Assembly: GCF_964213995.1 (NCBI RefSeq)
Contig: NC_135809.1
Location: 20,770,001 to 20,834,000 of the forward strand
Source: Mustelus asterias
Lineage: Eukaryota
DNA: 64,000 nucleotides
Direction: 5' to 3'
The notes under the pieces were generated by a model, which did not search any database, was not told where the DNA came from, and worked only from the letters and a program-made list of their open reading frames with translations. Shown here piece after piece: positions 2,375 to 59,866 of the stretch (the first letter of the stretch is position 1; each line of letters starts with the position of its first letter). The position numbers and the translations under genes were made by a program.

Positions 2375-2903
2375 GATGTGGAGATGCCGGCGTTGGACTG
2401 GGGTAAACACAGTAAGAAGTCTAACAACACCAGGTTAAAGTCCAACAGGTTTATTTGGTAGCAAGGGACCATTTGGACGAAGGGACAGCCTGTTCCGAAA
2501 GCTCGTGCGGCACGGTAGCACAGTGGTTAGCACTGCTGCTTCACAGCTCCAGGGACCTGGGTTCGATTCCCGGCTCGGGTCACTGTCTGTGTGGAGTTTG
2601 CACATTCTCCCCGTGTCTGCGTGGGTTTCCTCCGGGTGCTCCGGTTTCCTCCCACAGTCCAAAGATGTGTGGGTTAGGTTGATTGGCCATACTAAAAAAT
2701 TGCCCCTTAGTGTCCTGAGATGTGTAGGTTAGAGGGATTAGTGGGTAAAATATATGGGGGTAGGGCCTGGGTGGGATTGTGGTCAGTGCAGACTCGATGG
2801 GCCGAATGGCCTCTTCCTGCACTGTAGGGTTTCTATGATTTCTCGTGGCTTTTGCTACCAATTAAACCTGTTGGACTTTAACCTGGTGTTGTTAGACTTC
2901 TTA
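2375..2903. mobile_element. Penelope-derived inverted-repeat element (family B), interrupted by a SINE
   Basis: Arms GTAAGAAGTCTAACAACACCAGGTTAAAGTCCAACAGG and its reverse complement; TSD CCGATAGCATCT at 2363-2374 and 2904-2915. Confidence 0.8.
2508..2841 (+). mobile_element. HE1-like V-SINE, CR1-type tail
   Basis: Full consensus, flanked by CTCGTG at 2502-2507 and 2842-2847. Confidence 0.93.
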
Positions 2904-3976
2904 CCGATAGCATCTCCCAGCGACGGAATTCCGGTGGCATCTGCTCTGCGCTGGAAATCGGCAGGAAGGTGCAGAAGTAATTTAAATACTTATTGAAATA
3001 TATTTTAAATGTGATCAGCGGGCCTGGGACTGAAGTCTCACAGCCTCCACCGCCACCCACCCACCCTGCCCCGCTCCCCGCTACAGTGGTTCACTTCAGC
3101 AGGGTTTAGAGTAGCTCCCCACCAATTGAGAACTAGTGGCCCGACCCCACTAGAGTGAAGGGGCAATCGGGGCCCCCCAGAGGGTCGGGCGGCAGGGAGA
3201 TGGTGCCCCCTGGGCATTGGCACCCTGGCACTGCCAGTGGGTGTCCCCAGCACTGCCCTAGGGGCAAAGTGCCATGCCCATCGGGCATGGGGTAGTGGCA
3301 AGGGGGTGTGGCCAAATGGGGGCGGGGTGTCCCACTGCCACTCTGCATAGAGATCGGTGGGGGAAGGAGGGAGGCCAGCAATCGGGGCAGGCTGGGGGGG
3401 GGATCAACCGGGGGGGGGGGGGGGGGGGGGTCGGCACTGCGGGGGGGGGGTTAACTGTCAGGGGTGTGGGATTCAGTGGGGGGAGTGTGCTGGGGCTTGG
3501 GGTGGGCTGGAAAGGAGGATAGGGCTGGGCCTGGGAATGGTCTGGGGGCCAGCGATCGGGCCATGGGGAGGGGGGGGGAGGGCGGAGAGTCGGCAACGTG
3601 GGGATCGTGGGGCCGGCCAGCGATTGAGCTGGCCAACGATCGGGAGGCTGTCAGTGCGGAGCCACTGCGCACGTGCCTATCTTGGTGCTAATGGCTCGAC
3701 ACATGCGCAGTGGCCCACTCAGCGTGCTGGTTTCAGCTTCTCCAGTGGGAATAGGCCCCGCCCCCTGAAATTTAATGATATTCGCGCTGGTGGCGTCTGC
3801 TGTGCACAGAATGTGGGAGATTCTTCTCTGAACACCCACTGAAAAAAAAACAGCGTGAATTACTCTAGTTTTCACATGAATTCGACACTTGGAATTTTTT
3901 CGAGAGAATTCCGGCCATGAATTTTGTCCCTGACCTACAGTAAAGATCAATCATCTGGATTCCTTATATATTATTT

Positions 3977-7982: not shown

Positions 7983-8422
7983 CTTCTCTGATGCGATGAT
8001 ATCATTATGGGGTAAGGAGGTAGGCCCCAAGAATTACCTCAGCAGGGACAAGTATTAAATCTGAGGTGTGGGCATTATTCTGCATCACACTCTTAGCAAG
8101 CTGATGTAACTGGCCTCTTGAGTTCATTGAAGTGAGAACACATGTACAAGGCTGAACTATCTCCTCCCTACAACCAAATTTAGCACCAAATGCTTATGGT
8201 TTTCCAAGGCACATTCAACTGGTTCTCTGTAGAGTCAGTTGAATACCTGTTGGAGGAGTGCCCTTTCTTCCAGGGTTATAGTTTACTGTCGCAAAAATTG
8301 GCACACTCGGCAATTGAAATGGAATCCAGACTTCTCTGTGGTGTCACAAATTTACAGTTGTATTTGTACAGACTGACATACACTATGTATTCTGACTGCA
8401 ATCCCTTTGCTTGGTTGGGTTT

Positions 8423-8636
8423 GATGTGGAGATGCCGGCGTTGGACTGGGGTAGGCACAGTAAGAAGTCACACAACACCAGATTAAAGTCCAACAGGTTT
8501 ATTTGGAATCATGAGCTTTCAGAGCGCTGCTCCTTCATCGGAGGCTCCACTCAACTGATGAAGGAGCAGCGCTCCGAAAGCTCATAATTCCAAATAAACC
8601 TGTTGGAATTTAACCTGGTGTTGTGAGACTTCTTAC
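8423..8636. mobile_element. Penelope-derived inverted-repeat element (family B)
   Basis: About 80-bp arms; core CTGATGAAGGAGCAGCGCTCCGAAAGCT at 8555-8582. Confidence 0.85.
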
Positions 8637-26995: not shown

Positions 26996-27789
26996 AAGGA
27001 GTCTTGGCATATGCCGGGAAAACAATCTCACACATGGAGGAAGCTCTAATTGTGGTTGAACATTGAGAGACTGGTAACTCATCCTGTTGATTAATCTGAT
27101 TGGATGATTACTGGGTGTGTTGAAGGCCACATGTGTGCAATTGATGATGCCATACAGCTTGGGGAGTCCTTTGATGGTGGCACTGTCCTCTGTGCCTGTG
27201 AGGCTGCATCTGTTGTGAATCATAGAATCATAGAAACCCTACAGTGCAGAAGGAGGCCATTCGGCCCATCGAGTCTGCACCGACCACAATCCCACCCAGG
27301 CCCTACCCCCATATCTGCCGGCTAATCCCTCTAACCTATGCATCGCAGGACACTAAGGGGCAATTTTAGCATGGCCAATCAACCTAACCCGCATATCTTT
27401 GGACTGTGGGAGGAAACCAGAGCACCAGGAGGAAACCCACGCAGACACGAGGAGAATGTGCAAACTCCACACAGACAGTGACCCAAGCCGGGAATCAAAC
27501 CCAGGTCCCTGGAGCTGTGAAGCAGCAGTGCTAACCACTGTGCTACCGTGCTGCCATGTGAAATAAATGTAATGTCCAGCTCTGGCAAAGACAACCTCAG
27601 TGACCTGCAAGATGCAATGATTCACAGCCATTTGCACCATGCAACAAAGCTCTACCCCATCCTTGGAAGGAGGAAAAATCAAAAAGGTTCACGGCCACAG
27701 TGACTTTGACAGCTACTGGCAGGGCAAGGTGACCAGTTCTGCAAGGTGTGAGATCTTCAGTGAGGAGGTCTGTGTCTGTGACCATCTGT
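26995..27789 (-). pseudogene. Decayed PIF/Harbinger (HARBI1-like) DDE transposase
   Basis: Peptides LPVAVKVTVAVNLFDFSSFQG, HCILQVTEVVFARAGHYIYF and GLPKLYGIINCTHVAF...INRMSYQSLNVQ resemble Harbinger GFP..GAIDCTH...NRKG.HS.NVQ; split by a SINE. Confidence 0.8.
27220..27555 (-). mobile_element. HE1-like V-SINE, CR1-type tail
   Basis: Full-length copy. Confidence 0.93.
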
Positions 27790-27977
27790 GATGTGGAGAT
27801 GCCGGCGTTGGACTGGGGTAAACACAGTAAGAAGTCTCACAACACCAGGTTAAAGTCCAACAGGTTTATTTGGTAGCAAAAGCCACAAGCTTTCGGAGCA
27901 GCGCTCCGAATGCTAGTGGCTTTTGCGACCAAATAAACCCGTTGGACTTTAATCTGGTGTTGTGAGACTTCTTACTG
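27790..27977. mobile_element. Penelope-derived inverted-repeat element (family B)
   Basis: About 70-bp arms; TSD TGTGACCATCTG at 27777-27788 and 27978-27989. Confidence 0.85.
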
Positions 27978-45558: not shown

Positions 45559-45616
45559 AGAAGTTTAACAACACCAGGTTAAAGTCCAACAGGTTTATTT
45601 GGTAGCAAAAGCCACA
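45559..45616. mobile_element. Single-arm family B insertion inside Gypsy
   Basis: AGAAGTTTAACAACACCAGG...AGCCACA with TSD CTGACCATTTA at 45548-45558 and 45617-45627. Confidence 0.85.
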
Positions 45617-53340: not shown

Positions 53341-53592
53341 GTCATGATGTGGAGATGCCGGCATTGGACTGGGGTGAACACAGTAAGAGTTTTAACAACA
53401 CCAGGTTAAAGTCCAACAGGTTTATTTGGTAGCAAACACCATTAGCTTTCGGAGCACTGCTCCTTCGTCAGATGGAGTGGAAATAGAGCACATTTCCACT
53501 CCATCTGACGAAGGAGCAGCGCTCCGAAAGCTAATGGTGTTTGCTACCAAATAAACCTGTTGGACTTTAACCTGGTGTTGTTAAAACTCTTA
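53341..53592. mobile_element. Penelope-derived inverted-repeat element (family B), near-perfect arms of about 100 bp
   Basis: TSD TTATATGATTA at 53330-53340 and 53593-53603. Confidence 0.88.
53501..53537 (+). ncRNA. Minimal type I hammerhead ribozyme motif
   Basis: CCAT-CTGACGA-A-GGAGC-AGC-GCTCC-GAAA-GC-TA-ATGG gives stem I CCAU/AUGG, stem II GGAGC/GCUCC and palindromic AGCU stem III. Confidence 0.7.
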
Positions 53593-56721: not shown

Positions 56722-57207
56722 AGTTTATTTATTATTGTCACAAATAGGCTTACATTAACAGTACAATGAAGTTACAATGAAAATCCCGGAGTCGTCATAC
56801 TCTGGAGTCTGTTCAGGTACACTGAGGGAGAATTTAGCATGGCCAATGCACCTAACCAGCATGGCATCAGTGGAGAGAGAGTGGAGCCAACATTTCAAGT
56901 CTTGATGACCCTTCGTCAGCAGCTCTGGACTCGAAAAGTTGGCTCTATTCTCTCTCCACAGATGCTGGCAGACCTGCTGAGATTTTCCAGTATTTTCTGT
57001 TTTTGTTTCAGATTCCAGTATCCCCAATATTTTGTGTTTATTACCTAACCAGCGCGTCTTTCAGACTGTGGGAGGAAACCGGAGCACCCGGAGGAAACCC
57101 ACGCAGATACGGGGAGAATGTACAGACAGTCACCCAAGCCGGGAATCGAACCCAGGTCTCTGGCTCTGTGAGGCAGCAATGCTAACCACTCTGCCACCGT
57201 GCTGCCC
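56722..57207 (-). mobile_element. HE1-like V-SINE, type 2 tail, interrupted by family C
   Basis: SINE sequence is continuous across 56861-57042. Confidence 0.9.
56861..57042. mobile_element. Penelope-derived inverted element (family C)
   Basis: TSD ACCTAACCAGC at 56850-56860 and 57043-57053; minus strand CTGACGAAGGGTCATCAAGACTTGAAA. Confidence 0.85.
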
Positions 57208-59370: not shown

Positions 59371-59866
59371 GGCAGCACGGTGGCACAGTGGTTAGCACTG
59401 CTGCCTCACACCGCCGGGGACCCAGGTTCAATTCCGGCCTCGGGGTCACTGTCTGTGCAGAGTCTGCACATTCTCCCCCCGTGGGTTTCCTCCAGGTGCT
59501 CCGGTTTCCTCTCACAGTTCAAAGATGTGTGGGTTAGGTTGATTGGCCATGCTAAATTGACCCTGGTGTCAAGGGGATTGGTAGCAAACGCCACTAGCAT
59601 TATTGAGTTTGTGTCTTTATATGCCTTGTTTGTGAACAGAACTCCCACTCACCTGATGAAGGAGCAGCACTCCGAAAGCTTGTGTGGCGTTTGCTACCAA
59701 ATAAACCTGTTGGACTTTAACCTGGTGTTGTTAGACTCCTTACTGTGTCAAGGGGATTAGCAGGGTAAATATGTGAGATTACGGGAATAGGGCCGAGGTG
59801 GGATTGTGGTCAGTGGAGATTCGATGGGCTGAATGGCCTCTTTCTACACTATAGGGATGCTATAAT
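59371..59866 (+). mobile_element. HE1-like V-SINE, CR1-type tail, interrupted by family B
   Basis: SINE is continuous across 59580-59744. Confidence 0.9.
59580..59744 (+). mobile_element. Penelope-derived element (family B) with hammerhead core
   Basis: 14-bp TSD GTGTCAAGGGGATT at 59566-59579 and 59745-59758; CAC-CTGATGA-AGGAGCAGCACTCC-GAAA-GC-TT-GTG at 59650-59684. Confidence 0.87.

Follow-up and report, generated by a model that had tools for sequence, protein, structure and literature searches.

The association of Penelope-like elements (PLEs) with hammerhead ribozymes has already been published, as have the inverted stubs and one-sided tails of these elements. As far as their available text goes, the reports on Neptune/Nematis-type EN+ PLEs describe a single ORF with reverse transcriptase (RT), a CX2-5CxxC linker plus a GIY-YIG domain at the C-terminus, together with pseudo-LTRs made of partial tandems, an inverted 5'-truncated copy, a one-sided tail of 30–40 bp and target site duplications (TSDs) (PMC8557442, PMC3846280), and all of these traits are shared by the element described here. 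The minimal hammerheads of PLE pseudo-LTRs (Cervera and De la Pena 2014, PMC4209133; the motif also in PMC6765202) agree with the present ones in the core, the extra base before stem II, the G10.1-C11.1 pair, the short helix I and the palindromic 15.2-16.2 positions, as well as in their many variant families, in opposite-strand pairs lying close together and in most copies being solitary; the helix II of 5–6 bp found here is a difference. PMC4209133 states that in vivo evidence for PLE hammerhead activity is lacking, whereas the copies analysed here keep possible traces of the cut. In the anole Poseidon element PAc (Frangieh et al. 2024, PMC11167929) the hammerhead also lies near the ORF start, two RT start sites bound the tail, and both strands were shown to be cut and extended.

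The window, a 64-kb stretch of the Mustelus asterias genome, was previously described in a sequence-only reading as containing six insertions (at 2375, 8423, 27790, 45559, 53341 and 59580), five with clean TSDs of 11–14 bp and four forming long inverted repeats. On re-checking all six are present, five TSDs are clean and the sixth is decayed, and four inserts are inverted head to head. The insert at 53341 is flanked by a 12-bp TSD (53329-53340/53592-53603, the first base of the right copy being shared with the element end), and the target rebuilt from it fits TG-N16-CA. Between the TSD copies lie a 144-nt minus-strand arm and then a 108-nt plus-strand arm. The former (53341..53484) is a tail-bearing, 5'-truncated PLE end with 92% identity to a full-length copy (L106) and contains, read leftwards, the hammerhead, AATAAA, the tail and then the first 5 nt of the ORF. 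The tail (53341..53383, minus strand) is an unpaired extension that ends at the ATG of the parent, the ORF start in the full-length loci L092, L100 and L106, and this accounts for four extra bases at 53341. The latter arm (53485..53592, plus strand) is a tail-less, 5'-truncated PLE end with 91% identity to L106. Minimal type I hammerheads are located at 53439..53475 on the minus strand and at 53501..53537 on the plus strand, the latter with its predicted cut between 53533 and 53534. No empty-site joint for this locus was found among the contigs listed, none of which bridges the site from unique flanks. The neighbouring segment 53017-53094 is another abundant repeat, with very high contig depth in four runs.

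Three of the sister insertions are inverted as well. The one at 2375..2904 (TSD 2364-2374/2905-2915, 11 bp) has a stem II variant hammerhead with a damaged core, the insert at 8422..8635 is older, with a broken stem I and a decayed 12-mer TSD containing 2 mismatches (8410-8421/8636-8647), and in that at 27789..27977 (12-bp TSD, 27777-27788/27978-27989) the arms join within stem II. A single tail-less arm on the minus strand occupies 45559..45616 (11-bp TSD, 45548-45558/45617-45627), its 5' end lying at the predicted cut (+1 or -1). Finally, 59580..59744 is a tail-less plus-strand arm of the CAC/GUG subfamily, inserted in a SINE and flanked by a 14-bp TSD (59566-59579/59745-59758); its 5' end bears an inverted scrap of 19 nt. 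Inserts in the window are asymmetric in that one arm has an extra tail of about 40 nt, which stops where the parent's start codon lies. Nested at 2508-2841 in the first of these inserts, 4 nt past the predicted cut, is a SINE of tRNA type flanked by a 6-bp duplication; it has many copies across the window and is presumably of a kind present in sharks. A second short inverted insert at 56860-56960 resembles a hammerhead on its minus strand (a core, a longer stem II, GAAA and UGUU) and is likely to be the end of another PLE family.

Genome-wide counts were obtained with exact sequence patterns in the 3.68-Gb assembly. A 32-nt piece of the PLE end, downstream of the hammerhead, has 162,329 exact matches; the CUCAC-type core has 10,653 and the CAU/AUG-type core, the type of the 53341 copy, 21,865. 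Upstream identity among 60 loci extends over 0 to about 1,200 nt, and the longest copies enter a frame with RT thumb and GIY-YIG. A protein search for the parent ORF yielded 19,982 candidates, of which 150 were scored, and 20 long-ORF loci were examined. Three of these (L092, L100 and L106) have the layout hammerhead-ORF-hammerhead, with the repeats about 3,010 nt apart (3,016 nt in L092, where they enclose an 892-aa ORF). The hammerhead lies about 210 nt beyond the ORF stop; the next ATG, at which the tail ends, follows about 95 nt further on, whereas the tail of PAc ends 111–118 nt inside the ORF (PMC11167929).

The L092 protein has the motifs DKG, YIDD, CX4CX2C and VYLIRC..WYIGET and is matched by RVT_1 above the cut-off (E=6.7e-10). 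GIY-YIG (PF01541) was not reported for it in the domain search, although the endonuclease motif VYLIRC..WYIGET is present, and on L038 this domain scores just below the cut-off (E=3.3e-4, 21.3 bits vs 22.6). Atlas look-alikes (0.98) carry RVT_1 and some of them GIY-YIG; a PDB sequence search with the parent ORF gave 0 matches, and tblastn found no such ORF inside the window. The CX4CX2C motif (residues 754-762) is a Zn-finger-like linker between RT and EN which, judged by the CX2-5CxxC definition of PMC8557442, would place the parent in the Neptune/Nematis type and is a difference from PAc (PMC11167929). Pseudo-LTRs from partial tandems are present in L092, L100 and L106. Its host range would suggest Neptune rather than Nematis. 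At L093, three further long frames (801, 501 and 698 aa) lie beside the PLE ORF, the last being a second tandem PLE copy. Contigs from runs of four relatives cover the element and have loose ends at both tail boundaries; they contain no place where many molecules end and are silent on starts, strand and level, and none of the runs listed for the element is recorded as RNA.

The six inserts are thus 5'-truncated ends of an autonomous PLE. The sequence-only reading had offered Penelope termini or a non-autonomous ribozyme-bearing family, and had suggested extending the copies to a linked RT and GIY-YIG ORF. That ORF was found in the three full-length loci, the same end being present downstream of it and again upstream, as expected for termini; a non-autonomous family is contradicted by the continuous series of 5' ends, the shortest copies starting within the ribozyme and the longest being complete.

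The anatomy of the insertions was derived from 134 arms chosen by a motif downstream of the cut (the window, L112-L141 and L172-L211). Their 3' ends form two groups about 37 nt apart. Of 47 head-to-head pairs, 46 have exactly one tailed arm, and the remaining pair lacks a TSD. A TSD of 10–16 bp, with a mode of 12–13, flanks 39 of the 47 pairs, and one of at least 10 bp is found for 15 of 40 single arms; the rotifer PLE examples in the available text of PMC8557442 and PMC3846280 have 8–10 bp. The pairs span from 136 to more than 3,300 nt, with differing junctions, and over half of them lie between 136 and 300 nt. Both arms share their subfamily marker in 44 of 45 scorable pairs (22.8 after shuffling, maximum 35). 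A TG-N16/17-CA motif centred on the TSD is present in 34 of 39 rebuilt targets, compared with 4.8% of random sites. This symmetric target, a spaced palindrome, differs from the ATT of PAc (PMC11167929), and none is described for Neptune/Nematis-type elements in the accessible parts of PMC8557442 and PMC3846280.

We favour a process where the PLE protein would nick both strands 12–13 nt apart inside the symmetric TG-N16/17-CA. One nick would prime at a site on the RNA just before the ATG, giving the tail arm, and the other about 37 nt upstream on the same RNA, giving the tail-less arm; both cDNA copies would stop early and then be joined head to head. We infer that both nicks primed on one RNA; the protein of PAc is a dimer by AlphaFold prediction (PMC11167929). 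For inverted PLE copies, self-priming on an antisense template has been proposed instead (PMC3846280). We consider it very probable that all six inserts are truncated ends of a 3.0-kb EN+ PLE with a hammerhead repeat, likely generated by cutting of both strands, and the palindromic form would be a by-product of two-ended copying and head-to-head joining. At four loci (L217, L269, L281 and L295) the arms pass the tail into the first 60–90 nt of the ORF, so that priming can begin further downstream. Many insertions lie in CR1-like LINE remains or SINEs (flanks of L031-L060 and L112-L211), and an identical target word occurs at different loci (L124, L177).

The same sample bears on two other origins. 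A separate non-autonomous ribozyme-bearing element, retrozyme- or SINE-like, might copy itself as a palindrome via PLE enzymes; short palindromes are common and a few junctions recur, and PLE-derived non-autonomous retrozymes have been described in the available text of a preprint (bioRxiv 10.64898/2026.07.22.740005). Against such a short element, the spans reach beyond 3,300 nt with differing junctions, arms enter the ORF in both orientations, there are no tandem units, and the hairpin masks the ribozyme, so we regard this explanation as largely refuted and very improbable. A non-LTR retrozyme, defined in that preprint by tandem non-coding units each carrying a type I hammerhead, was also discarded, as the copies are dispersed, inverted or single, and enter the ORF. 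Inverted arms, small size and a window devoid of the ORF would also suit a DNA transposon MITE, for which the sequence-only reading had expected fixed-length TSDs and symmetric terminal inverted repeats; the variable TSD length, the asymmetric arms in 46 of 47 pairs, the existence of single arms with TSDs and the membership of the sequence in an RT element leave this a next to negligible prospect.

The 252-nt copy at 53341 folds as a 101-bp hairpin plus the unpaired extension (-198.1 kcal/mol, z -27.6), and the computed probability of stem II within it is about 1e-14. According to this folding, the ribozymes of the copy would be masked if transcribed. The proposal that each strand encodes a ribozyme copy that a hairpin would hide agrees with the cores at +53505 and -53471 and with the computed hairpin, which removes stem II. 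The attached suggestion of a functional siRNA source or folding switch appears improbable. It could draw on the near-perfect hairpin itself and on the frequency of pairs (47 among 134 arms), from which tens of thousands of comparable pairs would be expected, but insertion mechanics explain the form, a single CpG-type change is all that separates the two arms, and the locus shows no sign of transcription or conservation, nor a contig bridging it from unique flanks. The palindrome is more simply understood as a by-product of insertion. Rfam microRNA matches on the palindromes were rejected as hairpin artefacts.

The CUGA(U/C)GA core noted earlier in three inserts was recovered, with intact cores starting at +8555, +53505, +59653 and -53471. 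Taken alone, the hammerhead is no more stable than its shuffles (z -1.1 to +0.9, 6 stretches), and the Rfam hammerhead families had no match in the window at E<=10; the case for a hammerhead therefore rests on motif conservation and covariation. A survey of 196 arms found a recognisable core in 167; half of the loci were ORF-selected, and since arms were kept only at <=3 core mismatches the core conservation is partly circular. Position 17 is U, A or C in 166 of the 167 arms and G in one. Variation is seen at positions 7 and 17 and in loop II against a constant core, and changes in stem II keep its pairing. The extra base before stem II is A in 157 of 167 arms, the G10.1-C11.1 pair is G-C in 143 and G-U in 14, and the survey confirmed the palindromic stem III, AGCU, of the sequence-only reading.

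The two strands of stem I are CCAU/AUGG at 53501-53504/53534-53537 but CAC/GUG at 59650, and the stem is broken in the 8555 copy. The difference between the first two, previously pointed out as a compensatory change, is truly compensatory, yet it is one event at the level of subfamilies and not an independent one in the 53341 copy. The first stem I pair, scored by eye in the first 100 listed of 29,634 matches, is U-A in 79, C-G in 20, U-G in 1 and C-A in 0. Among 22 haplotypes, 92.4% of cells are paired and 3 of 9 pairs are changed on both sides, these reflecting few subfamily events; cell-based pairing measures exceed all 500 shuffles, while the count of two-sided pairs was reached by 97 of 500. 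Covariation in the stems is clear between subfamilies, yet the independent events among these related subfamilies are few. A double hammerhead has the same energy as two open monomers (-19.1 vs 2 x -9.6). In its full-length context, the first repeat of L106 has a stem I predicted to continue past a 6-nt bulge into a further helix. The hammerhead would work in the RNA of the parent element and would sometimes cut in vivo, leaving a 5'-OH end.

If a 5'-OH product were copied to its end, copies would start at the cut. The copy at 45559 ends at the predicted scissile bond, and 6 of the 134 arms end at +1/-1, compared with 0.84 per position nearby (p 0.007; 7 arms with cruder references). Without the window copy the excess has p 0.03, and two of the six arms come from one insertion. 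A cluster at -13 was dismissed as a reference artefact. Genome-wide junction patterns, which covered one subfamily only, gave 234 matches at +1, 243 at -2, 40 at +3 and 95 at -4, or about 950, 555, 250 and 255 after correction for chance. Counts at the -2 control are high too, in part owing to +1 ends that carry A/T filler and to intact copies that have slipped, and the -4 control is uneven, as 56 of its 95 rows share one junction. A junction scan of mixed subfamilies was not used as a test, because the position is blurred by a subfamily that has two additional bases. Scored by eye, 43 of the first 100 +1 junctions listed fold back around a short palindrome, a form that might arise with no cleavage at all; simple inserts with the TSD directly abutting +1 also exist (L213, L279, L307 and L152). 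The excess of copies starting at the predicted cut is real but modest.

A further observation concerns a word foreign to the PLE that is common to three arms among the first 30 of the +1 loci. It is eukaryotic SSU rRNA in sense orientation (Rfam, E 1.3e-9 and 4.5e-14). A genome-wide pattern was then run in which the rRNA word and the PLE motif were separated by 30 free nucleotides, and which detects this one rRNA end only. It returned 4 arms, belonging to 3 insertions, and in each of them an identical 18S end is joined exactly to +1; at the other bases of the 30-nt span it returned no fusions. The three insertions lie on three contigs, each with its own TSD, and belong to two PLE subfamilies. 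Their rRNA portions are 19, about 87 and about 112 nt long, and in one insertion both arms pass the 18S-PLE junction. Two subfamilies and three different lengths, contigs and TSDs point to at least two separate events, on RNA that ended freely at the cut. The 18S sequence continuing past the fused end had no match in the pattern scans; in vertebrates the 18S bases beyond this end probably differ from the PLE bases, although microhomology at the junction may have played a part. A comparison of the two longer 18S pieces, at L334 (G000:C3:5156800-5156970) and L335, shows 4 differences over 86 bases next to PLE parts that are nearly unchanged; an rDNA variant, or errors made by RT where rRNA bases are modified, may be the cause. 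Fusions to U6 or other small RNAs were absent from 80 loci drawn from the 100 listed +1 rows and from 30 drawn from the 100 listed at -2. Rfam was run on 40 fusion-candidate and related loci and misses pieces as short as 19 nt.

Hammerhead cleavage leaves a 5'-OH end. The 18S fusions favour cleavage in vivo at the predicted bond, followed by ligation or a template jump. The cut PLE RNA would have been joined to an 18S fragment by an RtcB-type ligase, or RT would have jumped between templates, and the product would then have been copied; the two-armed fusion slightly favours ligation. In U6/LINE-1 chimeras, RtcB joins 5'-OH ends to cyclic phosphates (Moldovan et al. 2019, PMC6789731), and there too a sense host RNA fragment stands at the truncated 5' end of a retroelement, in one unit with a TSD. 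By contrast, the 5'-OH partner here would come from ribozyme cleavage at one fixed base, and an internal piece of 18S takes the place of the host RNA. Any role of a ligase is putative. A cut made in trans on the rRNA was rejected, as the rRNA end lacks an NUH triplet.

These data must be weighed against the view that the inserts are PLE ends whose hammerhead never cuts in vivo, the pile-up at +1 being due to the short palindrome or to a pause of RT at stem I. The 18S fusions would then stem from one PLE copy in an rDNA unit or from microhomology switching. Arrays of rDNA are frequently absent from genome assemblies, and the fold-back share at +1 and the high -2 control also fit this view. PLE hammerheads cleave poorly in vitro, according to the available text of PMC4209133, and in the anole element ribozyme mutants left insertion unaffected and no RNA-seq reads ended at the cut, as the accessible part of PMC11167929 reports. 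It is harder to reconcile with fusions in two subfamilies with three rRNA lengths, contigs and TSDs, with simple inserts whose TSD abuts +1, and with the no-G rule at position 17 and the paired stems kept across subfamilies. On balance, we find a hammerhead that never cuts rather unlikely. For the fuller reading, our judgement is evenly balanced. It sees in the genome a germ-line fossil record of cutting by the hammerhead, with a few percent of the copies beginning at the scissile bond. Its 5'-OH product would have been joined by ligation more than once, in the way of U6 and LINE-1, to the cyclic-phosphate end at one fixed 18S break and then copied into DNA.

We found no published account of this PLE family or of rRNA fusions at the cut; the supplements of PMC4209133 and of the 2026 retrozyme preprint may list shark hammerheads. 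What is added here is that 18S fragments are fused at the predicted cut in three insertions, which is testable. Taken alone, the insert at 53341 is a dead stub of an ordinary sort, from a class already known, and the interest is carried by the traces at the family level. The family bears on how the inverted-plus-tail structure forms and on whether the minimal hammerheads of PLEs cut in cells, a question addressed in the available text of PMC4209133 and PMC11167929. With its intact 892-aa copies, the in vitro assay used for the anole element could be extended to a second clade, and the 18S fusions supply an exact junction to seek and an exact bond to map. If the fossil-record reading is true, the family would provide in vivo evidence for PLE ribozyme activity and a marker of a recurrent 18S break, accompanied by two-ended insertion at a spaced palindromic target.
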